This document shows, piece after piece, positions 4,487 to 44,462 of a DNA stretch of 64,000 nt; position 1 is the first letter of the stretch; every line of letters starts with the position of its first letter. The stretch comes from Syntrophales bacterium (GTDB lineage: Bacteria > Desulfobacterota > Syntrophia > Syntrophales > UBA2210), in contig CAXXKT010000001.1 of NCBI GenBank assembly GCA_963662405.2, forward strand, positions 224,001-288,000, given 5' to 3'. Below the pieces are notes generated by a model. The model was not told where the DNA came from and made no database searches. It saw only the letters and a program-made list of their open reading frames with translations. The position numbers were made by a program, and so were the translations under genes.

Positions 4487-4563
4487 ACCCCCGTAGCTCA
4501 GTAGGATAGAGCAACGGATTCCTAATCCGTGTGTCGTGCGTTCGAATCGCACCGGGGGTACCA
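4487..4563 (+). tRNA. tRNA-Arg (anticodon CCT)
   Basis: Acceptor stem ACCCCCG/CGGGGGT, anticodon arm ACGGA-TTCCTAA-TCCGT, GTTCGAAT T-loop, encoded CCA; 77 nt. Confidence 0.97.
4516..4563 (+). repeat. attL core (3' 48 bp of tRNA-Arg)
   Basis: Identical to 44415-44462. Confidence 0.95.
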
Positions 4564-9162: not shown

Positions 9163-9164
9163 TA

Positions 9165-11633: not shown

Positions 11634-11667
11634 GAAGCTTCCTCTTTGCGTTGGTGTGATATAATAC

Positions 11668-11810
11668 CGCCAACAATGAATATGCCCATTAGGTGTTTCC
11701 CGACCTTTCGTGCAATCCTACTTTATTTCACGAAGAATTAAAACAGAAAAATCTAATGTAAAATCAGTACCAATTGATTTTTTCGATTGGTTATTCTGCG
11801 GCAATAAAGA
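11668..11810 (-). repeat. Platform B, upstream half (copy 1) ending in attI-like core GTTGGCG
   Basis: Aligns with 25681-25825 starting exactly at the AAC of the core. Confidence 0.8.
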
Positions 11811-12194: not shown

Positions 12195-12340
12195 TTGACA
12201 ATACTTCGTCGGATAGTTAGTTAAGTAAGCGTTTTGATCTTGACGGCTTTACTTTTTTGAACTGCTGTAATAACCAAAGGGGAGATTATGGTCTGATCAT
12301 CAAAGCTCCGTTTCTTAAAAAGAGAGATGGAGCTTTTTTT
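12195..12340 (+). promoter_or_regulatory. Platform A leader copy 1: TTGACA promoter, SD-ATG-GTC-TGA, intrinsic terminator
   Basis: TTGACA 12195, TAG at 17-bp spacing, ATG 12288, hairpin + T-run 12302-12340; homologous to 18182-18327 and 21733-21876. Confidence 0.75.
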
Positions 12341-12406
12341 ATGAATGTCTCGATCGAATTTTAGGTGTTATGACGCACTTTCCCCTGTTTTTAAGATATT
12401 ATACGA

Positions 12407-12429
12407 GATCCATATAAACATTGTTAGAC
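12407..12429 (+). other. attI-like docking site GATCCATATAAACATT/GTTAGAC
   Basis: Matches 21932-21950; GTTAGAC is the exact complement of GTCTAAC of the first attC (13642). Confidence 0.65.
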
Positions 12430-12466
12430 GATACCAGTTATTCAATTCAGAGAAGGAATTTAAATA

Positions 12467-13437
12467 ATGGTCACAGTTTTTTTTCATATTCTCACCGCGA
12501 TGAAGATCTGAGGAATGAATTGGAAATTCATCTTTCAGCTCTTAAACGCCAGGGTGTTATCCAAACTTGGCATGATAGGCGAATTGAAGCCGGCAAAGAC
12601 CTTGACGATGAGATCGATTCAAATATTGAGGGTGCAAATATTATTCTTCTTCTCGTAAGCCCCTATTTTATAGCATCAGATTACTGTTATAATGTTGAAA
12701 TGCAACGCGCGATGGACCGCCATGTTAAAGGTGAAGCCAGAGTGATACCTGTCATCCTTCATCCGTGTGACTGGCAACAGACCCCTTTTGGGAAATTGCG
12801 GGCCACACCGACTGACGGCAAAGCTGTCTCAAAATACCCCAATCAGCATGATGCTTTCCTCTCTATTACCAAAGATATACGCCATGTTGCCGAAGAAATA
12901 ACCGGAGGATCAAAAAACGGAAATAATATTTTGAAACAATCACGGTATGTCAGAACAGAGGATATAGTCCCATCTCAATTTGCTGAAAAGCCAAGATCAA
13001 GCAATCTAAGAGTTCGTAGAGAATTTACCGACATTGAAAGGACAAGATTTCTTTCTGGAGCTTTGGGCTATTTTCAGAAATATTTTGAGAACTCTCTTAT
13101 AGAACTTCAGGCTCGTTCTGTTGGGATCGAAACCGAATTCAGAAAAATAGATGCAAACCACTTCATGGCTATGATTTTCAAGAAGGGTAATCTGGTTAGT
13201 CAATGCAAAATCTGGCTTGCAATGGATTCTTACTCGACAGGAGAGATCCGTTACTCTTCGTCTGTGTCTGTCAATGACAACTCTTGGAATGAATCACTTC
13301 ATGTAGAAGATGATGGCTATGTTTTGGGTCTCAAAAGTAGGGGATTTCATCATATTGGTTCCGATTCAGAAACATTATTGTCTAATGAAGGTGGCGCAGA
13401 ACTTTTTTGGAGTATGCTTTTGAATTCTTTACAATAA
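12467..13437 (+). CDS. TIR-domain protein; natural start out of frame at a T8 tract
   Basis: FFSYSHRD, WHDRRI, LLLVSPYF, SDYCYNVE; AGAAGGA-ATG at 12467 joins the TIR frame only if T8 (12477-12484) were T9. Confidence 0.8.
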
Positions 13438-13454
13438 AATGTAAGGAGAAGGCA

Positions 13455-13601
13455 ATGATTAGACAACGTTTCAGATGCAGAAACTGCGGCCGTAGATTCG
13501 AAACCGAGGTATTTGAACCAGGTGAAGCTAAAGAAAAGGGTTTGCCTTCTGGTCCAGTGAGGTGCCCAGATTGTAGAAGCACTGATGTAGAAAGAATTTA
13601 G
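13455..13601 (+). CDS. 48-aa zinc-ribbon protein
   Basis: CRNC...CPDC; AAGGAG RBS; inside the same cassette as the TIR gene. Confidence 0.7.
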   Translation: MIRQRFRCRNCGRRFETEVFEPGEAKEKGLPSGPVRCPDCRSTDVERI

Positions 13602-13641
13602 TCTTTTGTATTTGCCAGATAGGCAATATACTGATCAACAC

Positions 13642-13713
13642 GTCTAACAAGTCGCTGGAGAATCGACGGGAACACGCTGGTGCGTTTCCCGCGTCTCAGC
13701 TCCATCGTTATAC
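13642..13713 (+). other. attC site 1
   Basis: GTCTAAC...GTTATAC, L boxes GCTGGAGA/TCTCAGC pair with one extrahelical base; 72 bp. Confidence 0.85.
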
Positions 13714-13752
13714 AAAACAGAGGCCACATGCCAAATTCACGAACAGGAAATC

Positions 13753-16194
13753 ATGAAACTTGACGATTGGAAAGCAGAAACAAAGACGCGATTACCCACT
13801 AGCGCGGTTTATAGTGTTCTAAAAGAGAAGTGTAACAGGGACTCAGCTGGGCATCAAGTGTTGGAACTCGTTGATACCGCTACCTACTATGCATATCAAA
13901 GAACCAAAAGTATAATCCGGCATATGGGAGAGTTTACTCTCCATGATGGAGACCATCTATTCCGTGTGCTGTCGCTGCAGGAACGGTTGCTTTCCAATGG
14001 GCAATTGCGTTCGCTCAATGTTCCTGAACTCATGTTAATGATTTTGTCGGCGTTTTTTCATGATATTGGGATGGCGCCTGATGAACAAGACGTAATAGCA
14101 TGGAAAAAGATATGGGATACTACACCTCAATTTGAGAGCGGTACGGAAGAATTGGAGTATCAAAAATTTGAAAGGTTCTATTTCGCGAGGCCTGATGATC
14201 GCGATAGGGTTGAGCAATGCCTTCGCCGCGGAGATCATACTGGGGCAGACTGTGCTAAAGCTCATGTGGTTAGTGATTATATAAGGACGACACATGCGGA
14301 GCGAGCTAGGCAAATCATTAAGAAAGATTGGATGAATAAGATCGTATATCGCGATACTGACCTTACGGTTGAGTTTGCAGGGATTTGCTTCAGCCATAAC
14401 GAAGATCCACTTTCTTTGCTGGATCTTGATCCCGGTTATTTGTGTGGCCCTGATCTTTATGCAAACTTGCAACTTGTGGCCATTCTTTTAAGACTATCAG
14501 ATATTCTGGATTTCGATGCCAAAAGAACACCATCTATCCTTTTTTCTCACTTGTATGTGCGAAATCCAGTTTCCATTAGTGAATGGAACAAACATCGTTC
14601 GGTAGAGGCGTGGAGCATAACACCTGAAATTTTACAATTTCATGCAAAATGCCGTCATCCGGCTATTGAGGCGTCGATAAATGCTTTTTGTGATCTCATA
14701 GATATCGAGTTGGGTGCATGCAATAATATTGTCGCATCAATAAATAAATTCGATCGTCGTTTTTCTTCATCTGCTATTATGCTCCCCCTAAGAGTTGATC
14801 GAACCAAGGTTGAAACGGTGAAAGATATAGAAGGAAAGCCGGTTTACCTATATCGACAGACGCAGTTCAATCTAAGCAAAAAGCAAGTTATAGATTTGTT
14901 GATGGGAACGAAACTCTACGGTAATCCAGAGGTGGCTTTGAGAGAACTGATCCAGAATTCAATTGATGCTTGCCTGTTAAGGCAGGCACTAGAAGCTTCT
15001 TGGAAAACCAATTACACTCCGAGAGTAAATATTAAATATTATTCTATGGATGGGCAAGATATTCTTGAGGTAGAAGACAATGGAACCGGTATGGATCAGC
15101 ACATTATCGATGCATATTATTCAAAAGTAGGGTCTTCCTTCTATAAGTCTTCCGAGTTCTATGAGCTGAAGTCTCAGGCCAGAGCTAGTTTTACGCCAAC
15201 ATCAAGATTTGGAATTGGGATCTTATCATGTTTCATGGTCGCGGATACGCTAATTGTCGATACAAGACGTGTATATGGACCGCATGAATCAAGTAAACCG
15301 TTGAATGTTACTATCGAAGGACAGGAAAGCATTTTCTGGATTAAATCCGGCAGCCTGTCAACTCCGGGCACTACAACTAAATTATTCCTTCGAAAAACAG
15401 GAAATCCCTGGGATAGGATGGATGAAAACGAATTCATTACATCGGTGGAAGGAATTATTTCAAATCCGCCATTTGAAATAAAGATAGAGACATCTTCTCA
15501 TAGCAAGTCCAGGGATGCCTCAAGCTTTCTCCAAGTGCATGCAAATAACTTAGAAAATCGTTCATGGGAGGAACACGATAACGTTCGGAAGATATCTATC
15601 GAATTTGATGATCCCGCAAGAGGCTTTGTCGGTTCCGCTGTTGTTGCCATATTAGAGAGTCATGGCTTCCCAGTGCCTAAGTTAGAAATGACTTCTCAGA
15701 CAGTCGATATTAATGGTGAACCGTACGAACTTGGAAAGAGCATCGCTATTATTGAGAATGAAATAGAAGAGTCAGCAACAACTATTTCAATAGACGAAAA
15801 TGGAGATATTGATCAATCGAATTCATATCGTTCACTGAACAAGTCCATATCTCAGCTATCTCTGCATGGTATTGAGGTGCCTACCACATTATTTCCTGCA
15901 TCGTGGAGGATGCAAAAGAATCAGGTTAAGCTTTCATGGCCATTCCCTATAATATTGGTGGTGGATGTTTGTGGAGACGCTGATCTAGATCTCAATTCGT
16001 CGCGTACGCAGATAATAATGTCGGAAAAATGGGTCGAGTTTGAAAAACGGCTGTCATTTGAAATATGTTCGAAGCTTGCAGACTCTGTGTCTCGGGATTA
16101 CTGGGAAAAACTTAGAAATGTGTTGTTGTCAAATACGAAAAACCCAATCTTTTCTCAGAGTGTAAACGAAGTTGAAAAAAGCTACAACGTATAA
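13753..16194 (+). CDS. HD-domain (HD-CE-like) + Hsp90/GHKL ATPase fusion, putative defence effector
   Basis: FTLHDGDH and FFHDIGM; LRELIQNSIDA, EDNGTGM, FGIGILS. Confidence 0.8.
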   Translation: MKLDDWKAETKTRLPTSAVYSVLKEKCNRDSAGHQVLELVDTATYYAYQRTKSIIRHMGEFTLHDGDHLFRVLSLQERLLSNGQLRSLNVPELMLMILSAFFHDIGMAPDEQDVIAWKKIWDTTPQFESGTEELEYQKFERFYFARPDDRDRVEQCLRRGDHTGADCAKAHVVSDYIRTTHAERARQIIKKDWMNKIVYRDTDLTVEFAGICFSHNEDPLSLLDLDPGYLCGPDLYANLQLVAILLRLSDILDFDAKRTPSILFSHLYVRNPVSISEWNKHRSVEAWSITPEILQFHAKCRHPAIEASINAFCDLIDIELGACNNIVASINKFDRRFSSSAIMLPLRVDRTKVETVKDIEGKPVYLYRQTQFNLSKKQVIDLLMGTKLYGNPEVALRELIQNSIDACLLRQALEASWKTNYTPRVNIKYYSMDGQDILEVEDNGTGMDQHIIDAYYSKVGSSFYKSSEFYELKSQARASFTPTSRFGIGILSCFMVADTLIVDTRRVYGPHESSKPLNVTIEGQESIFWIKSGSLSTPGTTTKLFLRKTGNPWDRMDENEFITSVEGIISNPPFEIKIETSSHSKSRDASSFLQVHANNLENRSWEEHDNVRKISIEFDDPARGFVGSAVVAILESHGFPVPKLEMTSQTVDINGEPYELGKSIAIIENEIEESATTISIDENGDIDQSNSYRSLNKSISQLSLHGIEVPTTLFPASWRMQKNQVKLSWPFPIILVVDVCGDADLDLNSSRTQIIMSEKWVEFEKRLSFEICSKLADSVSRDYWEKLRNVLLSNTKNPIFSQSVNEVEKSYNV

Positions 16195-16250
16195 CAAGGT
16201 TTTTACAGGGATCGCAAAAACCGCGCGTTTGCTGAAAAACAACGTTATGC
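16189..16250 (+). other. attC site 2
   Basis: GTATAAC (contains the gene's TAA)...GTTATGC; TTTTACAG/CTGAAAA L boxes; 62 bp. Confidence 0.8.
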
Positions 16251-16275
16251 GTTTTGTGCATAAGGGGAAGTTAAA

Positions 16276-18087
16276 GTGAAGCTCGAACGATTGACATTGA
16301 AGAATTTTCGTGGCTATCGCGACGAAACCCCAATTCAGTTCGATGATCTAACCGCATTCATTGGAAGAAATGACGCAGGGAAGTCCTCGGTATTGGAGGC
16401 TCTTGAGATCTTCTTCAATAGCTCCTTAATCACTTGTGAACGTGAAGATCTTTCCATCGAGGCGCAAGGACACAATATAGAAATTGCATGCATTTTTTCT
16501 GAGGTCCCAGATCAAATCGTAATTGATGCGGCGAGCCCAACAAATCTGGCAGACGAGCACCTTCTTAATGGTGACGGCAATCTGGAGATTAAGAAGATCT
16601 TCCCAGCGACTGCCGCGAAACCGAAGGAAAAGATTTATATCAGTTGTATGCATCCATCGATTGAGGGTGCTGCCGACTTGCTCGAATTAAAACGAACGGA
16701 GTTGCGAGCACGTGCAGCGGAACTTGGTGTTCCAGAGGATAGTTATAATGGCAATGTAAATGCATCAATACGTCAGGCCATACGGCAACATATAGGTCAC
16801 CTCAACCTCACTCCTGTGGAACTACTGGTCGATAAAGAGGACACGAAGAAGGTTTACGACACAATCAAGGACTATCTGCCGATCTATGCGCTGTTTCAAT
16901 CTGATCGGCAAAGTCGTGACGATGACAAGGAAGTTGCAGACCCAATGAAATTGGCTGTTCAACAGGCGTTGCATGATCTCGCACCCGAGTTGGAGCACAT
17001 CAAGACTGAGGTCCGCGCTAGGGCAATAGAAACCGCGAATCGGACACTAATCAAGCTTCGAGAAATGGTGCCAGAGTTGGCTCGTGAGCTGACTCCGGAG
17101 TTCAAAGCGGAACCTAAATTCGATTCTCAGTTCAAGTTGTTGATCAAGTCGGAAGATGACATTGCAGTGAATAAGCGCGGCAGCGGAGTTCGGCGGCTCA
17201 TCTTGCTGAACTTTTTTCGTGCGGAGGCTGAACGCAGGCAGAGTGACGCGGTAGCATCTGATGTTATTTACGCCTTCGAAGAACCTGAAACCTCACAGCA
17301 TCCAGATCATCAAGAAATGTTGATGAGAGCATTTTTGGAGCTGGCTAACGCTCCAGGTAGCCAAATTATCATTACAACTCATACCCCAGCGCTGGCAGGT
17401 TTCCTGCCCCTGGAAAGCCTACGTTTCATTGAGCGTGAGGGGCATAGCCGAACCGTTGAGTCAGGGAACGATGATGTATTTCAGAAGGTCGCAGACACGT
17501 TGGGCATCCTTCCCGACCCAATTCCCAAAAATGCAACGGCCATCCTCCTCGTTGAAGGCAAGAGTGACATTTCATTCGTTCACCATACTGCGGAGCAATT
17601 GAAGGACGGCGGCCATCTGGACGCAACATTTGAAGACCGCAGATTTGCAATCGTACCAATAGGTGGGTGCGGTAATATCAAGCATTGGCGAACCCTTCAA
17701 CTGGCGAATCAATTTGGCGTGCCCTATTGTGTACTCCTTGACTCGGACCTCGGTACTCCCGAAGAGGCTGAGAACAGGCGAAAAGTCGCGGAACTGAAAG
17801 CCGACGGTATCAAAGCGTACCTCACGCGGAAACGCGAGCCAGAAAACTATATTCATCTCGATTGTCTCAATCTTCCAGCAAGCAGCACATTCACCATTAG
17901 TGATACGGACGACGCCAAAGTAAAAATAGGCCATGAGAAAGGGACTCGAAGGGCCACCGTCCTGGAAGATTATTGGGTGTTGATGACCTGCGAGCAAATT
18001 CGGGAGGTTGAAAAGTATGCTGACGGAGACACTGAAAAGTTCGAATTCACAGAGATGTTTCGGGACTTTTTGTCGCTTACCAATTGA
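16276..18087 (+). CDS. OLD-family ATP-dependent nuclease (ABC ATPase + TOPRIM)
   Basis: KNFRGY, GRNDAGKS, FEEPETSQHP, TTHTP; TOPRIM LVEGKSD and LDSD. Confidence 0.88.
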   Translation: MKLERLTLKNFRGYRDETPIQFDDLTAFIGRNDAGKSSVLEALEIFFNSSLITCEREDLSIEAQGHNIEIACIFSEVPDQIVIDAASPTNLADEHLLNGDGNLEIKKIFPATAAKPKEKIYISCMHPSIEGAADLLELKRTELRARAAELGVPEDSYNGNVNASIRQAIRQHIGHLNLTPVELLVDKEDTKKVYDTIKDYLPIYALFQSDRQSRDDDKEVADPMKLAVQQALHDLAPELEHIKTEVRARAIETANRTLIKLREMVPELARELTPEFKAEPKFDSQFKLLIKSEDDIAVNKRGSGVRRLILLNFFRAEAERRQSDAVASDVIYAFEEPETSQHPDHQEMLMRAFLELANAPGSQIIITTHTPALAGFLPLESLRFIEREGHSRTVESGNDDVFQKVADTLGILPDPIPKNATAILLVEGKSDISFVHHTAEQLKDGGHLDATFEDRRFAIVPIGGCGNIKHWRTLQLANQFGVPYCVLLDSDLGTPEEAENRRKVAELKADGIKAYLTRKREPENYIHLDCLNLPASSTFTISDTDDAKVKIGHEKGTRRATVLEDYWVLMTCEQIREVEKYADGDTEKFEFTEMFRDFLSLTN

Positions 18088-18090
18088 AAC

Positions 18091-18152
18091 ACATAACATC
18101 TTGCAGATAAGGACGTGCAAAACTCCCCGCGCCTCATAGCATTGCGTTAATG
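18091..18152 (+). other. attC site 3 (partly degenerate)
   Basis: ACATAAC 3 bp after stop...GTTAATG; imperfect hairpin; 62 bp. Confidence 0.65.
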
Positions 18153-18181: not shown

Positions 18182-18327
18182 TTGACATGACGCTACTATA
18201 CAGCTAGTAGTTTAGAAGCTTCATCGGTCTTGACCGCTTTATATAGGTTTTTGAACAGCTGTAACCGGAGGGGATTATGGTCTGATCATCAAAGCCCTGT
18301 TTCTCAAAATGAGAGATAGGGCTTTTT
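18182..18327 (+). promoter_or_regulatory. Platform A leader copy 2
   Basis: TTGACA 18182, GGAGGGGATT-ATG-GTC-TGA at 18277, hairpin AAAGCCCTGTTTCTC/GAGAGATAGGGCTTTTT. Confidence 0.75.
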
Positions 18328-18381
18328 GTTTTGTGTGAACGCCCTAGAATAATACTGTTAACAGTAGAAAACGGGTGACAT

Positions 18382-21469: not shown

Positions 21470-21732
21470 AGAGGACAAATAAGATAGGGGCAGAGGCTTT
21501 TTGACTGAACATTGCTAATTACTAAAAAGAAATCTACAAATTGTGGTGATTACTTGTATTTGTAGTCAATAAATGTGGGAAATGGATTCACGGCTTGGCT
21601 TTCAATCCGTACTGTTCAGGCAGGATAAAGGAAAATGCCAGAGTGTCGGTTATTGACGCCACCTACTACTGCTCAGAATAATTCAATTAGAAAATCAACA
21701 ATTACTAATTGAACGTCTGATGGTAAAATCTC

Positions 21733-21876
21733 TTGACAATACATTATCATAGAGTTAGCTAGAAAATGATTTTGGTCTTGATTGTTTCTGCTTGTGAGCA
21801 GCTGTAGCCAAGGGGGATTATGGTATGATCATTAAAGCCCTGTTTCTCAACGCGAGAGATGGGGATTTTGTTTTTT
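21733..21876 (+). promoter_or_regulatory. Platform A leader copy 3
   Basis: TTGACA 21733, AGGGGGATT-ATG-GTA-TGA at 21820, terminator hairpin 21834-21876. Confidence 0.72.
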
Positions 21877-21931
21877 GTGGACAGGTTATGTTGATATCGA
21901 TGTTGCCGGATGAAGAATGGGTTTTTATCAG

Positions 21932-21954
21932 GATCCAGATAAACATTGTTGAAC
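21932..21954 (+). other. attI-like docking site GATCCAGATAAACATT/GTTGAAC
   Basis: Near-identical to 12407-12425 up to GTT; 16 bp upstream of cassette gene. Confidence 0.6.
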
Positions 21955-21970
21955 TCATAAGGAAAATTGA

Positions 21971-22999
21971 GTGGAAGATTTACATCAAGAGTTTTTGAAA
22001 ACACTCAATGAGGTGATTGAGAAAAATCCAGAAAAAGCAGATGAGATTGATATTGAGCAACTCATAGCAGATGTAACCCCAGAAGCCGTTCGCTTAATAA
22101 AAAGCTCTCTTCTAAAATCCGCGAAAAAGATGCTTAAGGAGAGGCGAAAGTTAGCTAAAGGCTTCGAAAAGCGGAACATAAAACGCTGGTCTAAAGCATT
22201 CGATTTATTAGAGTCTCACATTGTTATATGTACAGAGGCAGGAGAAGAATTCAACTCATCGTATAGACCAACTGCTGCTGAGGAAAACAATTTAGTATTT
22301 GATATTGTTGTCAGACATCATGCAAGAGCCTGTCATATTGCACAGGAAATTCTATGTCTCTTAAAGGCAGGTTTTGCTGATGCTGCTCATGCCAGATGGC
22401 GTGCTCTCCATGAAGTAACCGCGACAGGAATGTTCATAGCTAGACATGGTCATGATTGTGCAGAGAGATTCTATTTTCATGACATTGTTGATTCTTACGA
22501 CGGAATGCTTGAGCACAAAAAGTACGAAGATCGGCTCCAGGAAAAGGCACCCTCCCAAGAAGAGCTCGATAGCTGCAAAGTAGAATATGACGAACTGATT
22601 GCACGATACGGTAAGAAATTTGCAGATCATTATGGTTGGGCTTCATACTTGTTCCCAAAACATAGGCGAGTAGGTTTTACAGCAATAGAAAAGAATGTTG
22701 GCTTGGATCATATGCGCCCCTACTATAGGTGGGCTAGCCAGAATATACATTCGGGCTCTAAAGGAATGAGAAACCGTCTCGGACTGTGTGAGGCAAAAGA
22801 CGATATTCTACTGGTTGGGCAAAGTAATTCAGGAATGACAGATCCTGCTCATGCAACAGCTATTAGTTTAAACCAAATTACTTGTGCTCTTTTGATGCTT
22901 GAGCCTACGTTAGATCATATTGTGATCATGAAAATAGCTGATGAATTTCAAAATGATGTGGGGGAAGCATTCCTAGAGATAGAGCGAAATGATTCATAA
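21971..22999 (+). CDS. DUF5677-like protein (possible HEPN-type fold)
   Basis: ARWRALHE and YRWASQNIH patterns; family recognised from memory only. Confidence 0.6.
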   Translation: MEDLHQEFLKTLNEVIEKNPEKADEIDIEQLIADVTPEAVRLIKSSLLKSAKKMLKERRKLAKGFEKRNIKRWSKAFDLLESHIVICTEAGEEFNSSYRPTAAEENNLVFDIVVRHHARACHIAQEILCLLKAGFADAAHARWRALHEVTATGMFIARHGHDCAERFYFHDIVDSYDGMLEHKKYEDRLQEKAPSQEELDSCKVEYDELIARYGKKFADHYGWASYLFPKHRRVGFTAIEKNVGLDHMRPYYRWASQNIHSGSKGMRNRLGLCEAKDDILLVGQSNSGMTDPAHATAISLNQITCALLMLEPTLDHIVIMKIADEFQNDVGEAFLEIERNDS

Positions 23000-23061
23000 C
23001 AAATCAATTAAGCGGAAAATCAGGCCTGCGGCCTATTTTCCGCTTATCTCAGTCGTTAATA
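22994..23061 (+). other. attC site 4
   Basis: TCATAAC (contains stop)...GTTAATA; strong stem TAAGCGGAAAAT/ATTTTCCGCTTA; 68 bp. Confidence 0.8.
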
Positions 23062-27357: not shown

Positions 27358-29280
27358 CTACCACCTCCATGAGTCGGGTTTCTTCCCCTGGGGTTTTTCC
27401 CCCCTGGTTTCTTTGATTTCTTTCCTTTGAGCCATCTGTTCTTTCTGTTGCCTCAGATAGGTGGCCAGCATCCTGAGCGAGGGCAGCCACTCGCTGTCGG
27501 CGCAGGCCGCCGCGATCACTTCACAGTCGAGCAGGTGGTTGTCCCGCCGGATCTGCTTCCAGTAGGTCTTGCCTCTCCGGTCCCTCCGGAACTCCTCGGC
27601 CAGGATCTGACGGGCGTAGTCGAGGCCGGTGTCCGCGTTGAGGAGGAACCGCTGTGTCTCATTCTCCTGCCGTTCCATGCGCCAGTGGAGCAGGGCCTTG
27701 TACTGGTCGGTGTCGAGGAGCCGCAGCTCCAGGCCGCCGGGAATCGCCTTGTTCGATCGGGGCAGCTTGTCGATCTGCGATACCCTGATCCGGCCTATCT
27801 GTTTGTGGGTTGCGCCCTTGGTCCCGAAGACCCTGCCCGGTTGCTGTGAGCGGATCCACTGGTAGATCTCCTCGGTACGGGTCCAGATGTTCTCTTCCGT
27901 GACGCCGCCCCCCGTATCGATGCCGGCACGCCAGATGCCCATCATCTCCGTCGGGTTTCCCTCAATGGGATACTGGGTGTTGAAGACGAGGTTCTCCACG
28001 TCGGCGAATGCCGTCAGGTAGCCGTACTGGACCAGCCAGGAGGTCAGGTCGTCGGCCCAGGCGCGCACGACGAACCAGAACCCGCTCTTCTGCACGTCGA
28101 TCCCCGCGGTGAGGGCGACCGCGTCTTTAGGGACAATGCCGGCGGCGAGCTCGGTCTTTTTATCGAGGAGGGCGCTTTCCTTCTTCGGGACCACCGTCTC
28201 CCGCCAGACCTCGGCCTTGTGCTGGGTGATGTAGACCATCATCTTCGACGGGTCCTCCATCCCACGCATATAGGCGGCGACGCAAGAGGACAGGGAGACA
28301 AAGGGACTGTACCAGGACGGGAGATGGAACCCGATAACCGGGGCGCGTTCCACCGGGCTGTCCGGGATCCAGCCGTAAAACGAATCGGGGTTCCCGAGCC
28401 CGTTCAGGACGGCCTTGTTGCGCAGATGATCATCCCACAGCATCCCGCATGATTCGCACTGGTAGTGCGCCAGGCGCCCGCGGACGATCTCCCGGGGATC
28501 GTTGCAGGTCTTCGGCCAGTTGATCTGTCCGAAGTGCATCACCTGGGGGGCCCTGCAGACGGGGCAGACCGCGTAGTAACGCATCAGTTCGTCTGCCTCC
28601 CTTTCGATCATGGGGCCGATGTAGCCGCTCTCGTCCGTCGGGGTCGACAGGTCGATGGTTTTTTTGGTGAAGGGGTAGGCGTTCTGCCGCTGGTCGGTGA
28701 GTGCGATGGGATCGGCTTCCTTGCCGGTGAAGTCGGGATACTTGTCCACCTCGTCCCGGATCATGTAGCGGACCGATTCGGACGACATCTCGGCGGCGCT
28801 GGTCGCCCAGGCCATCATGAAGTCCATGCCGTTCGTGAAATTGACATGCAGGGTCGTCGTGTCGGAAACGCCGGGCCCCAGGAGTTCGGCTATCCGGGAC
28901 GTGGATCTGAACATGGGGAGAATCCGCCGGCGGGCGATCCGCTTGGTCACCTTCTCGTCGGGCATGATGTACATGCAGGGGCCGGGATCCTGCTCGATCC
29001 ACCGGCAGAGGGCGTTGAAGGCGACCTGTGTCTTGCCCGTCTGGGGCGCGAACATGAGGATGATCCGCCTGACATGGGGCTGACTGATCGCGTTCATGGG
29101 CCCGACCAGGTAGGGCGTGGTCGTGTTCTGCCAGAGTCCGGTCATAGGACCGTTCGTGACGATGCGGTACCGCTCGGCCCACTCGGACACGGTCAGGCGT
29201 TCCCGGAGACGAAAGACGCGCCTCTCTCCCGGGGTGAAGGTGAGTGAGTCTTGGCTTTTTAGATCAGGAGCCGTGTTCAT
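27358..29280 (-). CDS. Phage terminase large subunit, GpA family
   Basis: SEWAERYR, APQTGKT, RDEVDKYP, STPT, CPVC/CESC, AGIDVQ, IDTGG, NHLLDCEV. Confidence 0.92.
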   Translation of the reverse strand: MNTAPDLKSQDSLTFTPGERRVFRLRERLTVSEWAERYRIVTNGPMTGLWQNTTTPYLVGPMNAISQPHVRRIILMFAPQTGKTQVAFNALCRWIEQDPGPCMYIMPDEKVTKRIARRRILPMFRSTSRIAELLGPGVSDTTTLHVNFTNGMDFMMAWATSAAEMSSESVRYMIRDEVDKYPDFTGKEADPIALTDQRQNAYPFTKKTIDLSTPTDESGYIGPMIEREADELMRYYAVCPVCRAPQVMHFGQINWPKTCNDPREIVRGRLAHYQCESCGMLWDDHLRNKAVLNGLGNPDSFYGWIPDSPVERAPVIGFHLPSWYSPFVSLSSCVAAYMRGMEDPSKMMVYITQHKAEVWRETVVPKKESALLDKKTELAAGIVPKDAVALTAGIDVQKSGFWFVVRAWADDLTSWLVQYGYLTAFADVENLVFNTQYPIEGNPTEMMGIWRAGIDTGGGVTEENIWTRTEEIYQWIRSQQPGRVFGTKGATHKQIGRIRVSQIDKLPRSNKAIPGGLELRLLDTDQYKALLHWRMERQENETQRFLLNADTGLDYARQILAEEFRRDRRGKTYWKQIRRDNHLLDCEVIAAACADSEWLPSLRMLATYLRQQKEQMAQRKEIKETRGEKPQGKKPDSWRW

Positions 29281-30176
29281 TCTTCGTCCTCCGTCTCTTC
29301 GTCTCTCTCATCGTCTGTTTCATCTTCCCGTGTTTCATTCTCTTGTCCGGGGGGCGGCAGGATCACCCGGAAGGTCCGCTCCTCGCCGTAGCGGGCCAGG
29401 AACGATTCGAAACGGCCGAGAAGCCATTCGATCAGGTCCGGTATCGTGTCGGCATTGCCGGCGGCGCGGTTCACGATCTCCGAAGCCTCGGCCCGCGCAA
29501 AGGTCTCCAGGTCGTTCCGGAAGACGGCGGCGCGTTTCGCCAGTTCTCCCTCGAACAGGTCCTTCGGCACGTAGGCGCCGGTGAACATCTCCGCCTTCAT
29601 CGTCCAGTGCCGCGCCTGGGCCTTGGTCTTTTCGATCTCCGCGTGCAGTTTTTCCTGCTGCAGCTTCTCAAGTTTTTCTGAAGCGCTCCCGTCGGCCCGC
29701 TTCAGATAGGTCTGCGCATATCGGTCGACCTCGTCGATCCGGTAGGTACCGTCGGCCTCGCATCGGAGTTTCCCCTCCTTTTTGTGCTTGTACACGGCGG
29801 ATTTTTTGACCTTCCACCCCTGATCCCTGAGGTAGTCGGCCACCGCCAGGGTGTTGGCAAGGGTCGGAGAATGGCCAAGGTATTTCTCGGACAGGACCAC
29901 CAGTTGCTGTTCCAGGGCGGACTCCGCCTTCTGCCAGTCGTTGAGGCGGGCGGAGGTGGATTCCGCCTGGTAGTCCCGGATGCATTTCACGACGGCGTTG
30001 TGTAGGACCTTGAGTGAGATCTGGTCCTGCCCGTCGGCAACCTCCAGCAGTTTTTTTACCTTCTCCTGATCCATCATTCCGTCCGAGATCGCCTGGCAGA
30101 TCATCCAGGCGCGCTGCGCGTTACTCGCGCGCTTCCAGTCATCAGCGACGATCTGATTCTCTTTTCCCTTTACCAT
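29277..30176 (-). CDS. Putative terminase small subunit
   Basis: Overlaps terL start; HTH-like middle followed by coiled coil as in Nu1-type proteins. Confidence 0.55.
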   Translation of the reverse strand: MVKGKENQIVADDWKRASNAQRAWMICQAISDGMMDQEKVKKLLEVADGQDQISLKVLHNAVVKCIRDYQAESTSARLNDWQKAESALEQQLVVLSEKYLGHSPTLANTLAVADYLRDQGWKVKKSAVYKHKKEGKLRCEADGTYRIDEVDRYAQTYLKRADGSASEKLEKLQQEKLHAEIEKTKAQARHWTMKAEMFTGAYVPKDLFEGELAKRAAVFRNDLETFARAEASEIVNRAAGNADTIPDLIEWLLGRFESFLARYGEERTFRVILPPPGQENETREDETDDERDEETEDEE

Positions 30177-30318
30177 TTACATGAGGCCCCTTTCGTGGTA
30201 TCGGCGCTCATGTGGATGGTAGCGCTTCGGCGCCCTGTGTGGTCGCACAGGTTTACGGGAGTTGCACCTCCCGGAATACCGTCCACCCTTCTTTTGTACC
30301 GTCAATAAAAATCATTAG

Positions 30319-31701
30319 TCATCTTGATATGGTAATCGGATCGCACCTCCTCTCAGGGTTGCATTCTTCGGGACTTAATAAACCCGAACAGATCGACGTA
30401 CGGCCTTCCGAGTTGCGTACCAGTTCCGCCTTTTCCCCGGTGAACCGTTCCCACCGCTTCACTATCACGTCGCAGTAGACGGGGGTCTTCTCCATCGTGT
30501 TGCAGATCCGTCCCATCTGCTCGCACGCCATCAGGGTCGTTCCGGATCCGCCGAACCCGTCCAGGACGAGGATGTCAGGGCTGTTCGGCGTGCTGTTCCG
30601 GATCATCCTGCCGACCAAAGGAACGGGTTTCTGCGTGGGATGGAGGGGGTTCCGGGATTGGCGGTCCTCTCGCAGAACGGTGGCGGCCTCGCATCGCCGC
30701 ATCTCCTTCACCAGTTCCACGAGCTCCGCGCGTTTCATCCGGGAGATGTCCGCCTCCTCGTCGATCACGGTCGTCAGTGAGTAGTCCATGCAGAAGTAAT
30801 GGGTCCGCCCCGGCTTCCATCCGTACAGGATGGGCTCGTGTTTCCAGTTGTAGTCCTGCCGGCCGAGAACGGCGCCGTTCTTGACCCAGATCAGGCACTG
30901 CTTGAGGAGAAACCCCGCCTTGATGACGGCGCTCCGGAAGGCCAACCCCCCGATGTCGGAATGGGAGACGTAAAAGCAGCCGCCCTCCCGGGTGTGGGTG
31001 TAGATGTTGCGGAAAGCGGCTGTGATCATCTCCCGGAACAGTGCCGGGGGAAGGTTGTCGTTCTCAATGCCCTCCCCGCGGTCGTTGTGATAGTCGACGT
31101 TGTAGGGGGGATCGGTCCAGACCAGATCGGCGAGGCGACCCTCCATCAGACTGGCCATCGCGCCGGCGTCGCTGCTGTCGCCGCAGAAGAGGCGGTGCCT
31201 CCCCAGGAGGTAGAGGTCCCCCGGCCGGGTGATGGGTTCGGTGATCTTCGAGACCTCGGTTTCGGCATCGAACCCGTCTTCCCGCGGCTCGGCCTCCTCC
31301 GCCCTCGGCATGATCTCCGCGATCTCTTCCGCGTCGAACCCGGTGAGGCTGACGTCGATCTCCACGGCCTCGAGTTCGACAAGCAGGTCGCGGAGCCGGT
31401 CGAGGTCCCATTCGCCGCTGATCTTGTTGAGGGCGATATTGAGGGCCTTCTCCTTCTCTTCGGGAAGATCGACAACGGAGACTTCGGCCTCCGTCCAGCC
31501 GAGGTCCCGCATGACGGTCAATCGCTGATGACCGCCGACGAGGCGCCCGGTCCGCACGTTCCAGATCAGGGGATCCACACAGCCGAATTCCTCCAGGGAA
31601 CGGCGGAGCTTCTCGTATTCCCGGTCACCGCTGCTCAATGCCTTACGCGGGTTGTAGTCCGCCGCGGTCAGATCGCTCAGTTTCATGGTGGTGAATCTCA
31701 T
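30319..31701 (-). CDS. ParB-N + DNA methyltransferase fusion
   Basis: YNPRK, VGGHQRL, LNKISGEWD; TDPPYN, HPTQKP, DGFGGSGT; start at MRFTT. Confidence 0.88.
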   Translation of the reverse strand: MRFTTMKLSDLTAADYNPRKALSSGDREYEKLRRSLEEFGCVDPLIWNVRTGRLVGGHQRLTVMRDLGWTEAEVSVVDLPEEKEKALNIALNKISGEWDLDRLRDLLVELEAVEIDVSLTGFDAEEIAEIMPRAEEAEPREDGFDAETEVSKITEPITRPGDLYLLGRHRLFCGDSSDAGAMASLMEGRLADLVWTDPPYNVDYHNDRGEGIENDNLPPALFREMITAAFRNIYTHTREGGCFYVSHSDIGGLAFRSAVIKAGFLLKQCLIWVKNGAVLGRQDYNWKHEPILYGWKPGRTHYFCMDYSLTTVIDEEADISRMKRAELVELVKEMRRCEAATVLREDRQSRNPLHPTQKPVPLVGRMIRNSTPNSPDILVLDGFGGSGTTLMACEQMGRICNTMEKTPVYCDVIVKRWERFTGEKAELVRNSEGRTSICSGLLSPEECNPERRCDPITISR

Positions 31702-32123
31702 GATATCTTCCTCATCTTTCCCAGGGCGCGGAACTTGATATCCCACAGTCTCACCGTCTCGGGGCTGATCTTCAAAATCCCGGCAATCTCCCGGGGGGAA
31801 ATCCCGAAATGCAAAAAGACGGCAAGGAGGAGGACCTCGCTGTAGGTCATGTGACATCCGGCCAGGAAGGAACCCGTGAGGGCTGTAAAGAACTTCCCGC
31901 ATTGCCGACAGCACACCCGTTTCCCCTCCCAAAATCTCTGCAGCGCTTTTCCCGCTATCTCACCCCGGCACTCCGGGCAGCGGACGGGTCCTCTCCCGTG
32001 GATCGTCCCGAGGATCCATGCCCTGCAGGCGTCCTCATCCAAAAACCCCGCACGGAAGGATGCAGCAACGTCATGAGGTACAAACACGTTGCGTCCGGTA
32101 TCGTCTTCTTTTCTTGCCTTCAT
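31698..32123 (-). CDS. Zinc-ribbon + HTH protein (resembles IS1595 transposase N-terminus, no DDE)
   Basis: CPEC...CRQC and ISPREIAGILKISPETVRLW. Confidence 0.55.
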   Translation of the reverse strand: MKARKEDDTGRNVFVPHDVAASFRAGFLDEDACRAWILGTIHGRGPVRCPECRGEIAGKALQRFWEGKRVCCRQCGKFFTALTGSFLAGCHMTYSEVLLLAVFLHFGISPREIAGILKISPETVRLWDIKFRALGKMRKIS

Positions 32124-32209
32124 TTTGATGAGTTCCGTTTTTCCATGCGGTTTTTATTCAACAAGTAGTGAAAAGCCGGGGTGCTCCGTCTCCGTACCCG
32201 AAAAATCCC

Positions 32210-32608
32210 TCAGGAAGGACCCGCTCGAGCTTCGATCTCCCTGATGAAGGGAAGGCGATCGCCTCTGGAGATGAGTTCGTTCAGATCGTCCCGTGCCTCT
32301 CCCAGAAGAGCGCAGAGATTCTGGGCGGCGGTCCACCGAGCGGTGCCGATGTCGTCCCTAGTCATGGCCGGTTCGAAGTGCAGGCGGAAGCCGTTCATCT
32401 CCCGGTAGATGGAGAATCCTTCCTCCCGGTTCATCTTCAGGTACTCCGCCAGTCTCATCACCGCTGGCCGGTGCATCCAGGGTGACGGATATGCGTTTGT
32501 CATGTTGATCTGGTTTGTCTTGTTTGTCGGGGATCCCTTTGTTCCCCGTGTCTGTGATCCTTCTCTTTCCGTCTGTGATTGGTACTTTTTGAAGTCGATT
32601 ATTGGCAT
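32210..32608 (-). CDS. Hypothetical phage protein
   Basis: GGAGG RBS before MPIIDF. Confidence 0.55.
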   Translation of the reverse strand: MPIIDFKKYQSQTEREGSQTRGTKGSPTNKTNQINMTNAYPSPWMHRPAVMRLAEYLKMNREEGFSIYREMNGFRLHFEPAMTRDDIGTARWTAAQNLCALLGEARDDLNELISRGDRLPFIREIEARAGPS

Positions 32609-32679
32609 GATTTCCTCCATAAACCGGTAAATCCGGGCTGCAGTCGTTAAAACGCTTTGATATCGCTTGAGTATTCGGG

Positions 32680-32990
32680 TGGTCCAAGCTGGAATTGGCG
32701 AAACGGATTGATATTGTTTGATTATTCGGAAAGTGGACCGGAAATGGACCGAAATGGTCCAAGCTAACTTTTTGATTTTATTGACTGGTCCAAGTGGTCC
32801 AAGTACTTTTCTATAAAATAGATTTATAAAATTGTAAGAAGTGTTCTCAACGCGCGCGCGCGCGTGCGCGCGCATGTGCAATATGTCAAAAAAGCTTGGA
32901 CCACTTGGACCACTTGGACCGGGCCGCGAAATCATTACGGTTTTTTTGGAGGTCAGGTTGGACCAGCTTGGACCACCTGGACCACCCTGC
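32680..32990. repeat. Putative replication origin with TGGACC/GGTCCA iterons
   Basis: About ten iterons in both orientations around an AT-rich tract and a CG-alternating run, just downstream of primase-helicase. Confidence 0.7.
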
Positions 32991-33096
32991 ACCGTTTTCG
33001 CGGATGTTGTGATGCATGGCCGCCTCGCAGAACGGGGGGATACGGGGAACAATGGTGATTTGGTACCACACCGGAGTGAGAGATTCAAATGCTTTC

Positions 33097-35505
33097 TCAT
33101 GTCTTCACCTTCAGTCCCACGCCGCGTATCACCCGTTTCCGTTCTCCGGAGATGCGGGGACGGTAGATCATGATGTTGTTCACGGCGTTCTCGAGCTCGC
33201 GGAAGAAGTTGTTGTTCGACGTCGGCATGTACCCGTTCATCCCGCAGTACTGCCGGTACCGGCTGTAGATCTCGTCCTTGGCCACTTCCTCTTCACTGCC
33301 GGTGACGCACTCGTCCTCGACGAAGGAGAGGATCGGACTGTTCGATCTTCGGTATGACATGATGAGGGCGCGGGTCTCCTCGCAGTCGGTGAACCGGCCC
33401 TTCTCCATCAGTCTCCTGAGCCCGCAGAGCGCCCAGTAGAAGATCTCCGACAGCTCTTCTTTGAGCTTGTCGAAGAGGTAGGGATCCCGTTCGGGATCCC
33501 CCTCGAGGAACTGCCGTTTGAATCTGACCGGCAGGAACCGTTCGTACAGCGCATCGGAGGTGTCCTTGATGCGGGGCAGGATGTTCCCGGCGAATATCAG
33601 CTTGCAGTACGGGGCGAACTCGAAGTTGTCCCGGTGCTTGAAGGCGGCCTGGATGGGATCACCGCTGGTGATCGCCTTGAAGTAGCTGCTCTCGATCGCC
33701 TGGCTCCCGATCTCCGTGGAGATGTTCAGGAGCTTGTTGTAGAGCGACGATCGGGGAAACTCACGCTCCAGGTCCGGGAAGGACACGGCGGAGCAGTTCC
33801 TCCCGCCCACCATCTCCCTGAGGAGCTTCATGAGCGTCGACTTCCCGTCCCGGCCCGGGCCGTAGAGGAACAAACACTTCTCGTAGCGTGCGTGGCGCGT
33901 CAGGATGTAGCCGGCGAACTCCTGGACCTGGTCGATGACCGCCGGCGTCCTGACGGTTGCGTCGAGGTAGGCAAGGAACCGGTCGCACCGTTTCGGGGAC
34001 GCCGGATCCAGGGACACGGGGAAGATGGTGGTGAAGTAGTAGTCCGGATCGTGTTCCTTCATGTCGAAGGTGGTGATGTTCAGCATGCCGTTCTGCAGGC
34101 AGATCCAGTCCATCCGGTCGTTGACCTTCCGGCCGTGGGGCAGCGTGCAGAGCTTCCGCACCTGGTAGACGGCATCCTCGACCCGGGCCTTCTGTGATTC
34201 GGTGGCCAGGTGCCGTATGGCCGCGTTCTTCAGGTGGTCCTCGTCGAACTCTTCCCAGTACTTCCCGTTCCAGAGATAGATCAGCTCGGACGCCGGGTCG
34301 GACATGAGCCGGTACTCCGCAAGCAGCCGCTCCGCCAGGAGGCGGGCCTTGAATGAGTAGCGGTGGTTGACGCCGTGTTCGAAGAACTCTTTCACAGACT
34401 CAAGATCGCCCGGGGGAGGATGCTCTCCGTCAAGCACCGTCGACGTCGTTCCCCGGGTCTCGAACCGCGGTTTCTCCGCCGATTCAACCAATATCCTGAA
34501 GTCGTCTGTTGTCTTTCCGTGCCTGACGAAGAAGTCCGTCAGGTCCTGGCCGTGGTCGGCCGGAAAGCCACCCTGTTCGTCTTTTCCCATGAAGCCGGGC
34601 CATTGTATGACCCGTACCGACCTGGCCGTCCCTGTAAGGGCCTGGGCGGCGTACCGGGCGTACTTCTGTCCCGGGCGGTCGGCATCGTAGGCGATGACCA
34701 CGTCCCGGTCCCGGAAGGCGTCCAGCTGGTCGTCGGGGAACGTCTTGAGCTTCGTTGTCTGGGTGATGGCGTTGAAACCGTGCGACAGGGCGCAGATCGT
34801 GTCGCTTTCCCCCTCGCACAGAATGACCGTGTCTTCGGGGTGCAGGGGCCTGGCCGGGAAGAGGCGCGACCGGCCGGTGGACCGGGCGAAGGAGATGATC
34901 TTGTAGCGCTTCGCCCCCGGACGGTAGAGCCTGATGTTGACCAGGGTCCCTTCGGTGTCCCGTACGGGGACGGCCAGCCGGTCCGGGACCTTGATGGCCA
35001 CCAGTGCGCCCTTCTTTGTCAGGTAGTGCGTCTGGAGGCGGAGGTCGAGGATCTCCATCCACTTTTTTGACCATCCCCGTTCCTTCTCCATGCGGGCCAG
35101 GAGGTTCTCCGGAAGGGCCGGGAAGAGCTCCAGGGCGCGCTCCATCTGCTCGTGGACTACCGCAGGATCGATCTCTCTTTCCGATCGCTCCTGCGTGGTG
35201 TTCTTTGCTCCTCCTGAGGAGTCGATCGGGATGTCGAAGGTCTCACAAAACGTCCTGAATCCCTCCTTTTGGCCGTAACCCTTCACCTCGGACCACAGCC
35301 TGATCAGATCGCCGTCGGCGTTGCAGGAGAGGCACTTATAGACGTCTTTCTTGAAGTTGTACGAAAATGAGGGGTTCTTCTCACCGTGGAGGGGACAGAG
35401 GCCGTGCAGTTCGCCCTTGGCCTCGTCGATGCTCGTGACGGTGAACAGCGTCCTTGCGATCTCCGCCCGGCGGGCTTCTCCCAGGTATTTTGCGGCAAGA
35501 CCCAC
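33097..35505 (-). CDS. Primase-helicase (CHC2 Zn finger, TOPRIM, D5/SF3 helicase)
   Basis: CPLH...CLSC, CEGESD, YDAD, GPGRDGKST. Confidence 0.9.
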   Translation of the reverse strand: MGLAAKYLGEARRAEIARTLFTVTSIDEAKGELHGLCPLHGEKNPSFSYNFKKDVYKCLSCNADGDLIRLWSEVKGYGQKEGFRTFCETFDIPIDSSGGAKNTTQERSEREIDPAVVHEQMERALELFPALPENLLARMEKERGWSKKWMEILDLRLQTHYLTKKGALVAIKVPDRLAVPVRDTEGTLVNIRLYRPGAKRYKIISFARSTGRSRLFPARPLHPEDTVILCEGESDTICALSHGFNAITQTTKLKTFPDDQLDAFRDRDVVIAYDADRPGQKYARYAAQALTGTARSVRVIQWPGFMGKDEQGGFPADHGQDLTDFFVRHGKTTDDFRILVESAEKPRFETRGTTSTVLDGEHPPPGDLESVKEFFEHGVNHRYSFKARLLAERLLAEYRLMSDPASELIYLWNGKYWEEFDEDHLKNAAIRHLATESQKARVEDAVYQVRKLCTLPHGRKVNDRMDWICLQNGMLNITTFDMKEHDPDYYFTTIFPVSLDPASPKRCDRFLAYLDATVRTPAVIDQVQEFAGYILTRHARYEKCLFLYGPGRDGKSTLMKLLREMVGGRNCSAVSFPDLEREFPRSSLYNKLLNISTEIGSQAIESSYFKAITSGDPIQAAFKHRDNFEFAPYCKLIFAGNILPRIKDTSDALYERFLPVRFKRQFLEGDPERDPYLFDKLKEELSEIFYWALCGLRRLMEKGRFTDCEETRALIMSYRRSNSPILSFVEDECVTGSEEEVAKDEIYSRYRQYCGMNGYMPTSNNNFFRELENAVNNIMIYRPRISGERKRVIRGVGLKVKT

Positions 35506-43243: not shown

Positions 43244-44338
43244 ATGTCAGTCAGGCAAATTGCCGAAAGTAAATTCATAATCGATTATTACCCTGACGGG
43301 CGGAAGGGGAAACGGGTTAGGAAGGTCTACACGCTCCCATCCCGCGAAATCGCGGAAACCATAGAGCGGGATCTCGTATCTCTGAACAAAAAGAGCAACC
43401 CCCTTCAGTCGTCAGACCTGGCCACCATCGATAGCCTGTTTCCGGCTTATCTTAAGTGGTTCGCAAAACACCGGGCGGCCAGCACGTTACTAGACGTTGA
43501 GAACACCTACACAAAACACATATCCCGGATCATGGGATCTGTAAAAGTGCATGACCTCAAAACCACGCATATCAGTCTATACAAGAACATCAGGGGGGCA
43601 GAAAAGGCGATCCGAGGACACAATCGGAAGGGTGCGCCCGTACAAAAAACAACCTACGTATCAAATCGCACAATCATGAAAGAGCTCTCCTATTTCTCGG
43701 GGTTCCTTCGGTGGTGTCGGAGAGAAATGGAACTTGATATCAAGCCGATCCACATTGAACAACTCCCCCACGCACGGCCGAAGCCGATAGTGCTGTCACC
43801 GGAAGAAGTGGGGGCAATCCTCAAAAGCCTCGACACGACACCGAGGGCCGTGGTTTTGCTTCTCTATACCATGGGACTCAGATTATCCGAAGCGATAGGA
43901 CTGAAGTGGGAAAACGTTGACTTTGCAAACTCAGTTTTGCGGGTAATCCAAAAAGGAGGGGAGTGGAAGGTATTACCTATGAACACGTGGGTTGTCAACT
44001 CTCTAAAGAAACTTCCACGAACGGGAGCACATGTGTTTCATAATCCAAAAACAGGAAAGCCGATATACAACATAAGAAAGCCCCTCGAAAAGGCGCGCCG
44101 GGCGGCCGGGATAGAAAAGAAAGTAAACCATCATCTCTTCAGGCACTCCATAGCTACACACCTTATGGGGCGCAATGTTCAGACCCGGCTCATTCAGGAA
44201 TACCTTGGACACGCGGAGATTGATTCAACAGATTGGTACATGCACATCAATATGAAACTCTTGGGAGATGCGACCAAGGGCGCCTTTGATTTCATGGAGA
44301 ATATCCCGGAGCTCAACGAGCAGGTGACTACACCATGA
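43244..44338 (+). CDS. Phage-type tyrosine integrase
   Basis: GLRLSE, HLFRHS, LGH, terminal Y; adjacent to attR. Confidence 0.92.
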   Translation: MSVRQIAESKFIIDYYPDGRKGKRVRKVYTLPSREIAETIERDLVSLNKKSNPLQSSDLATIDSLFPAYLKWFAKHRAASTLLDVENTYTKHISRIMGSVKVHDLKTTHISLYKNIRGAEKAIRGHNRKGAPVQKTTYVSNRTIMKELSYFSGFLRWCRREMELDIKPIHIEQLPHARPKPIVLSPEEVGAILKSLDTTPRAVVLLLYTMGLRLSEAIGLKWENVDFANSVLRVIQKGGEWKVLPMNTWVVNSLKKLPRTGAHVFHNPKTGKPIYNIRKPLEKARRAAGIEKKVNHHLFRHSIATHLMGRNVQTRLIQEYLGHAEIDSTDWYMHINMKLLGDATKGAFDFMENIPELNEQVTTP

Positions 44339-44414: not shown

Positions 44415-44462
44415 GGATTCCTAATCCGTGTGTCGTGCGTTCGAATCGCACCGGGGGTACCA
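44415..44462 (+). repeat. attR core (3' fragment of tRNA-Arg)
   Basis: Identical to 4516-4563. Confidence 0.95.

Follow-up and report, generated by a model that had tools for sequence, protein, structure and literature searches.

A three-cassette integron array at an attI site without an adjacent integrase gene, on an element integrated at a tRNA gene of a Syntrophales bacterium

The window analyzed here, a stretch of 64,000 nucleotides of a Syntrophales bacterium (assembly GCA_963662405.2, contig CAXXKT010000001.1, positions 224,001 to 288,000 of the forward strand), carries an array of three integron cassettes, preceded by an attI site (12364..12425, plus strand, crossover G12423|TT) with no integron integrase gene (intI) beside it and by a repeated leader sequence (12195..12342, plus strand); all these features lie on a 40-kb element (4487-44462) integrated at a tRNA gene. 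The cassettes are all on the plus strand: cassette 1 (12423..13706, 1284 bp) has the core GTTAGAC, cassette 2 (13707..16243, 2537 bp) the core GTTATAC, and cassette 3 (16244..18145, 1902 bp) the core GTTATGC. Their attC sites, on the same strand, are attC1 (13642..13713, 72 bp, inverse core GTCTAAC), attC2 (16189..16250, 62 bp, inverse core GTATAAC), and the imperfect attC3 (18091..18152, 62 bp), which has the inverse core ACATAAC and the closing core GTTAATG at 18146. The attI, the missing intI, the leader, and the host element are additions to a preliminary description of this DNA.

The three core/inverse-core pairs pointed out in that description, the third with one mismatch, are indeed present, and the sizes measured agree with its estimates of about 1.3, 2.5 and 1.9 kb. 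Core and inverse core agree at 4/4 of the free positions in cassettes 1 and 2 and at 3/4 in cassette 3; of the three cores, each inverse core matches that of its own cassette best, and the joint chance of the three matches is ~5e-5 when drawn from the genome's own attC cores. The inverse core of attC2 at 16189 overlaps the stop codon, as had also been proposed, since it contains the TAA of the 813-aa gene of cassette 2. With an attC scorer that had 18 other sites of the genome as its training set, which are included in its counts of high-scoring sites, attC1 scored 39.8 (one null match at >=35) and attC2 28.2, a value which is not significant alone (at >=28, 34 null matches vs 55 real ones); attC3 was not reported, and a simpler heuristic used first picked up none of the three sites. 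Folding the bottom strands of the circular sites, a check suggested in the preliminary description, gave a favorable result for attC1, a modest one for attC2, and a negative one for attC3: on circularization, the folds went from -16.6 to -19.2 kcal/mol (z -4.6), from -7.7 to -9.3 kcal/mol (z -2.1), and from -5.0 to -7.5 kcal/mol (z -0.5, level with shuffles), respectively. The bottom strand was better than the top strand in attC1 and attC3, not in attC2; the R box was paired in the lowest-energy fold of all three circles, and attC3 showed the expected geometry in the circle. Since the circular fold of attC3 is no better than those of shuffles, this site was called from its position and a homologue. 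Its closing core continues directly into a second leader copy (18182..18330, plus strand, with ATG-GTC-TGA at 18277), and GTTAATG together with this adjoining copy is likely to be the right half of the empty site.

Cassette 1 carries two open reading frames (ORFs), encoding a TIR protein with a C-terminal alpha/beta domain (12467..13437, plus strand), which matches the PADLOC ThsB model over its full length (E 1.9e-111), and a 48-aa zinc ribbon (13455..13601, plus strand), which also lies 3' of TIR in 4/44 homologous loci. A frameshift affects the TIR gene: a base is missing at the T8 run 12477-12484, the ATG (12467) and ribosome-binding site are out of frame with respect to the homologues, and the ATG frame ends after 14 codons. 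The T8 run stands without a gap also in contigs from two runs of one sample, which may be the source of this DNA, and the TIR homologue at locus L061 has an in-frame stop. An alignment-based model of a homologue shows a TIR fold (Z 16) and a second alpha/beta domain; single-sequence prediction of the TIR protein gave a pLDDT of 32. The Thoeris pairing is incomplete within the cassette, to which the search for ThsA was confined: the ThsB model matches, and its companion is the zinc ribbon and no ThsA. Cassette 2 encodes an 813-aa fusion of an HD-CE phosphoesterase with an Hsp90-like ATPase (13753..16194, plus strand), with intact HD and GHKL motifs, matches to PF24391 (E 1e-51) and PF13589, and residues invariant in nine homologues; we take it to be a conflict protein. 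In cassette 3, an OLD-family ATPase-Toprim nuclease (603 aa, 16276..18087, plus strand) has its Walker A/B, Toprim E, and DxD motifs intact and matches PF13175 and PF20469, its best PDB sequence match being 6p74. The three cassettes belong to known defense-type families, of which they are ordinary members, and their defense roles are predicted from family membership. The OLD nuclease would degrade DNA, the HD-CE protein would hydrolyze nucleotides under the control of its Hsp90-like ATPase, and the TIR protein, frameshifted here, would cleave NAD+ if intact. P2 Old and TIR systems are described as anti-phage (PMC9122126). The earlier statement that all the cassettes look defensive holds as a prediction from the family matches of all three, and has to be qualified by the frameshift in TIR.

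Each of the three genes has relatives which form independent cassettes at other loci, next to different neighbors. Locus L061 matches cassette 1 with 83% DNA identity from 12422 to 13656, that is from GTTAGAC to just beyond GTCTAAC, and is flanked by other attC sites, and L062 begins at the same GTTAGAC. Cassette 2 is matched from 13708 to 16197 at 84.5% DNA identity by L049, and L051, from a Motiliproteus metagenome-assembled genome, has identical GTTATAC/GTATAAC ends within a long array. A 72% homologue of the OLD gene (L117) occupies an array position between GTTACGC and GCGTAAC, its own attC being read by eye. The preliminary description had proposed looking for the same genes with the same boundaries in other arrays; they exist for cassettes 1 and 2, with an array homologue for cassette 3, and these relatives, along with the core pairs, support its view of the array as the footprint of circular cassettes integrated at G/TT. 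Among 12 HD-CE loci from GTDB, a scored attC follows straight after the stop in four, GTATAAC covers the stop (by eye) in two, and six have none; TIR or OLD genes are present in none of the 12, and HD or OLD genes in none of the 44 TIR loci, 16 of which were inspected for attC, mostly without finding any. OLD homologues at 39-42% were found in 6/400 genomes of the phylum, all without attC, and OLD matches in 2/251 genomes of another family, including the 72% homologue at L117; attC is lacking from 7/8 OLD loci. Since so many HD, TIR, and OLD loci lack attC, the cassette genes also exist outside cassettes. On plasmids, OLD homologues were detected in 356 records (<60%); no OLD relatives were found in viral contigs. 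Apart from attC1 look-alikes, none of the 338 other genomes of the order contained DNA of these cassettes; in four of them, attC1 copies 94-96% alike (L113-L116) close unrelated cassettes. As copies of attC1 close unrelated cassettes, while the TIR cassette of L061 has another attC, the exchange of attC is independent of that of the gene.

No intI gene was found near the array: matches to TIGR02249 above the cut-off occur in the genome only at C1:2211990 and C1:30608, corresponding to one intact intI (C1:2211906), the product of which is full length with its catalytic motifs visible, and one split copy (C1:30608-31553). The array thus has at least two attC and an attI, and lacks the adjacent intI of a complete integron. 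The intact intI lies ~2 Mb from the window attI, which is identical to the attI of that gene (C1:2214391) at 53/62 positions, including 29/30 next to the crossover, and is the closest to it of 11 orphan attI sites. The genome contains 10-11 attI sites without intI. With an attI matrix, 14 sites scored >14 bits, two of them linked to intI (11 were in the training set; null maximum 15.7), and the leave-one-out score of the window attI was 43.1; a second matrix including relatives yielded 10 clear orphans and none in the null. The attI pattern was found in 13 of 40 other genomes (one in the control; at least one match looks like chance), and seven loci in six related genomes have a leader followed by an attI with no intI between them. 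In the IntI clade of this genome, intI is oriented toward attI and is followed by a palindrome (GGGATRTTAT..ATAAYATCCC), in which an IS3 is inserted at the intact intI, and which is also retained in some intI-less platforms. In genome G036 (L034, L039, L046), five attI matches were obtained, at least three with the end of an intI just upstream, and no leader match.

Integron integrases show specificity for the attI cognate to them (PMC2095811). Two orphan sites of this genome begin with cassettes 100% identical to those of intI-linked arrays: the first cassette of orphan C2:54199, of 764+140 bp, also stands within the intI2 array, and that of orphan C2:287957, a 140-bp mini-cassette, also in the intI1 array, the identity starting at GTT in these shared cassettes. 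This argues for loading in trans; three platforms which are 90-94% alike bear different first cassettes. The 140-bp mini-cassette carries no gene and is repeated in the intI1 array (L009, 3392-3531 and repeats); its right end near C2:287957 (L013) is without GTT.

The leader upstream of the window attI has a -35 box TTGACA (12195), a weak -10 box, a Shine-Dalgarno (SD) sequence, a two-codon ORF ATG-GTC-TGA (12288-12296), and a terminator hairpin (12302-12336) with a T tract. It belongs to a 170-nt element with 56 copies in the genome, present in 30/36 genomes of the family and 10/24 other genomes of the order, and has no match in Rfam at E 1. The -35 box was found in 52/56 of the genome's own copies vs 1/113 control windows, and in 22/57 copies of relatives. 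In the terminator stem, 7/15 pairs covary vs 0/500 shuffles. The leader precedes both intI genes of the genome as well as those of G005 and G019, not that of G012 nor those of 11 more distant IntI homologues examined; no LexA above the cut-off was detected in the genome. Numerous unrelated accessory genes have a leader copy ahead of them as well, and 22/56 copies are located in DNA of <47% GC, vs 10% for the background. The window leader is 80% alike to copies without attI and <=64% to the intI leaders, which cluster separately from the common subfamily including the window copy (in a weak tree with rough bootstrap). In G030 and G035 (L119-L148), leaders have the same SD-ATG-codon-TGA-terminator arrangement and another promoter type, GTAGATTT..ATCGTGAT.

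The combination of an SD, an upstream ORF (uORF), and an intrinsic terminator is that of a ribosome-mediated attenuator. The first paired base of the stem lies at a median of +15 from the ATG, within reach of a ribosome on the mini-ORF, and masking a ribosome footprint at +18 removes the stem foot in two of the three window copies. The -35 box is conserved, the -10 box weak, and the terminator ahead of attI. The leader would replace the usual cassette promoter (Pc), most transcripts ending at its terminator; translation of the two-codon ORF would place a ribosome over the hairpin foot, permitting read-through. We consider such ribosome-dependent read-through plausible, and hold it tentatively. 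In its favor, ATG (101), SD (102), and stop (89) are frequent among 113 copies with variable codon 2, the ATG and stop counts being biased upward because the covariance model includes both. Two features speak against it: the remaining 24 copies lack the stop, and the -10 box is poor in the subfamily of the window leader, the promoter of which was not listed by a simple scan. It is quite possible, and somewhat short of an even prospect, that the leader instead acts as a constitutive damper or as an operator at the DNA level, or is overridden by a second NusG-family protein. The copies without a stop, the varied downstream genes, which are not solely defensive, and a near-palindrome (ATGRTC-T-GATCAT) in the common subfamily would all fit this alternative; the palindrome has nevertheless been lost in two other families and in the intI leaders, which keep SD, ATG, and stop, and TAA or TAG replaces TGA in five copies. 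A second NusG-family gene, possibly encoding a specialized antiterminator, does exist at C1:1449233-1449526 (L205), but no link between this paralogue and the leader was detected. A hairpin hiding the SD upstream of the mini-ORF was also considered, and found to be unsupported (median z -0.2, -0.6, and -0.7 in 42, 19, and 23 copies, as in shuffles).

The element carrying the array begins at a tRNA-Arg(CCT) gene (4487..4563, plus strand), the 3' half of which (4516-4563) is repeated perfectly over 48 bp at the right end (44415..44462, plus strand). It carries a phage-type integrase which is not an IntI (43244..44338, plus strand), a repressor, methylases, a primase-helicase, and the large and small terminase subunits TerL and TerS, those from the terminase genes to the primase-helicase, with one methylase, lying at 27358..35505 on the minus strand. 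No head or tail match was found among 17 ORFs at 26.6-44.3 kb and 11 cargo ORFs, the scan not including the ORFs at 4.6-9 kb. With its integrase, replication gene, and attachment repeats, and no virion gene in the scanned ORFs, the element resembles a phage satellite. The TerL of three sister cores is 93-94% identical; that at C1:2335572-2378512 (TerL 93% identical) is a complete prophage with portal, major head, and tape measure genes. The exact attI pattern gave 0 matches in viral contigs.

The array lies behind a solitary attI on an element integrated at a tRNA gene. Taken together, these data make it probable that this is a live dock, which the single intact IntI loads in trans, as it would some ten similar docks, the TIR cassette being the last to arrive here. 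The IntI from C1:2211906 would recombine circular cassettes into G|TT, first the OLD cassette, then HD-CE, and then TIR, and each insertion would push the old right flank (GTTAATG and the leader copy) further downstream. The complete sister prophage would package the element, which would act like the defense hotspots of P4 or of phage-inducible chromosomal islands (PICI), its cargo being swapped by an integron integrase. Several points tell against this explanation. The TIR gene is frameshifted, attC2 and attC3 fold weakly, no second copies of the window's cassettes occur in the genome, and no excision joint was found in contigs from three runs of one sample, contigs being known to drop rare variants. 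The shared cassettes at the other orphan sites could predate the loss of intI from those platforms, and the IS3 (C1:2212937-2214260, L009) separates the intact intI from its attI. No IntI match at E 1e-40 was found in the fragmented assemblies of G006, G007, and G011, relatives having the leader-attI arrangement. An attI is present inside only two of the three virion-less elements, another lying in an island which adjoins the third in tandem, and none scoring >16 turned up in the vicinity of terminase homologues (16 regions, many of them short, from seven other genomes, and four viral contigs), so that the link between satellite and attI is local so far.

We regard it as unlikely, while deserving serious attention, that the locus is a fossil cluster of attC sites lacking an integron integrase (CALIN), i.e., a former complete integron minus its intI, with the array now fixed and its cargo decaying. 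The TIR frameshift, the weak attC3, and the lack of duplicates of this array's cassettes would be expected in that case; in G011 and G019, attI comes after a leader of the intI type, with the post-intI palindrome between the two in G011, which is the pattern of a clean deletion, and intI loss is one of four origins given for CALINs (PMC4889954). However, the window leader belongs to the common subfamily and not to the intI leaders, and the dock therefore did not arise from the resident integrons by simple deletion; the terminator is just 78 bp from the crossover, with no intI remnant, and 100% identical cassettes are present at other orphan sites. Since an intact cognate IntI is present in the genome, local loss of intI need not stop loading. 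It is very improbable that the cassettes entered a secondary, attG-like GTT site with an incidental resemblance to attI: integrases are indeed capable of inserting cassettes at genomic sites (10.1101/2022.09.11.507474), but both the 53/62 match to an intI-linked attI and the leave-one-out score, far above the null maximum, contradict it. The preliminary description named homologues conserved as a fixed operon, with no boundary at these GTT positions, as what would refute the array. A fixed three-gene defense operon with chance GTT/AAC matches is compatible with the many homologous loci lacking attC, and is rejected almost with certainty, since the three genes never occur together in these loci and the predicted boundaries coincide exactly with the ends of the closest homologues.

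As a wider and distinctly speculative extension of the favored explanation, which we think improbable as it stands, the genome may contain a split-integron network, in which one integrase serves some ten docks, some of them on helper-dependent phage derivatives which sample and spread defense cassettes, and a two-codon attenuator sensing ribosome behavior switches integrase and docks in place of LexA and Pc.

Defense cassettes, CALINs, a prophage CALIN bearing an attI, satellite defense hotspots, and short-uORF attenuators are already known; the cargo is of a known kind, and it is the platform which is less ordinary. CALINs are defined as attC clusters without an integron integrase, and exchange with integrons has been proposed (PMC4889954). 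Like them, the present array has at least two attC, no intI nearby, and an IntI elsewhere in the replicon; unlike those described in that paper, it keeps a cognate attI and an upstream leader, is one of 10-11 such docks in a single genome, and is accompanied by identical cassettes which point to insertion into this genome's docks. Such docks would be missed by IntegronFinder, as only the attI of classes 1-3 are sought. The Shewanella prophage M16-3 also has a CALIN with its own attI, but this is a single case, with a complete integron alongside (PMC9892861), whereas here the element lacks intI, the integrase is 2 Mb off, and the dock pattern recurs in the genome and in six relatives. Sedentary chromosomal integrons also contain anti-phage cassettes with one or two genes, expressed at the first positions (10.1101/2024.07.02.601686); these are described mostly from Vibrio and have unusually short genes and a plain Pc, whereas the present cassettes span 1.3-2.5 kb, are carried by a mobile element, and follow a leader with a terminator. 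The hotspots of P4-like satellites and P2 phages likewise hold variable anti-phage cargo, including TIR and ATPase-Toprim proteins, on helper-dependent or phage elements (PMC9122126); there, exchange is proposed to occur via cos ends and homologous recombination, and the word integron is absent from the main text, whereas the window cargo has attC/attI boundaries and its helper dependence is a prediction. As regards the leader, the uORF(MIN) of vmlR (PMC9226507) also combines an SD, a very short leader ORF, and an intrinsic terminator, but relies on alternative hairpins at one gene, whereas here a two-codon ORF abuts the terminator in 56 copies, including those before intI. The two-codon minigene of axe-txe (PMC8708949) and ORF-11 of attI1 (PMC8876359) are similar in having an SD and a tiny or short leader ORF, but act on translation. 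No account of many intI-less attI per genome or of this leader was found in the literature accessible to the search, which mostly did not extend to subscription papers or to supplements, where attI-bearing CALINs may be listed.

The surroundings of the array contain further loci. The second leader copy is ahead of a gene for a 773-aa PHP-ATPase protein (18382-20703), TrlF/Ppl-like below the cut-offs, and the attC scorer gave no cassette there. A second attI without intI, with a third leader copy (ATG-GTA-TGA at 21820), is located at 21709..21950 on the plus strand (crossover 21948), and is followed by a fourth cassette (DUF5677; 21948..23061, plus strand) with a strong attC (22994-23061) and a poor match between core and inverse core. 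On the minus strand, 9033-11830 and 23176-25870 carry a restriction-modification pair of the XhoI type and a DUF3800 gene; they have homologous 5' and 3' flanks, each beginning at ..ATT|GTT, with no attC scored, and are possibly a second type of dock facing the opposite way. An IS630-type element (23300-24529) has a 100% identical copy at C1:2632809-2634038. The left arm (5083-8500) contains host-like genes, such as a 670-aa ORF resembling an acyl-CoA ligase, and small membrane ORFs; 8114-8460 recurs inverted at 44652-44998, and a group II intron reverse transcriptase (45969-47396) lies just outside the right end of the element.

Loading of orphan attI sites in trans, if real, would mean that many CALINs now regarded as relics may still be capturing cassettes, invisibly to current tools, and that phage derivatives could acquire defense genes by borrowing the integron integrase of their host. 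How integrases are controlled in the absence of LexA is described as an open point (PMC3108266), and the leader shared by docks and intI genes is a direct, testable candidate for LexA-independent control of the integrase.

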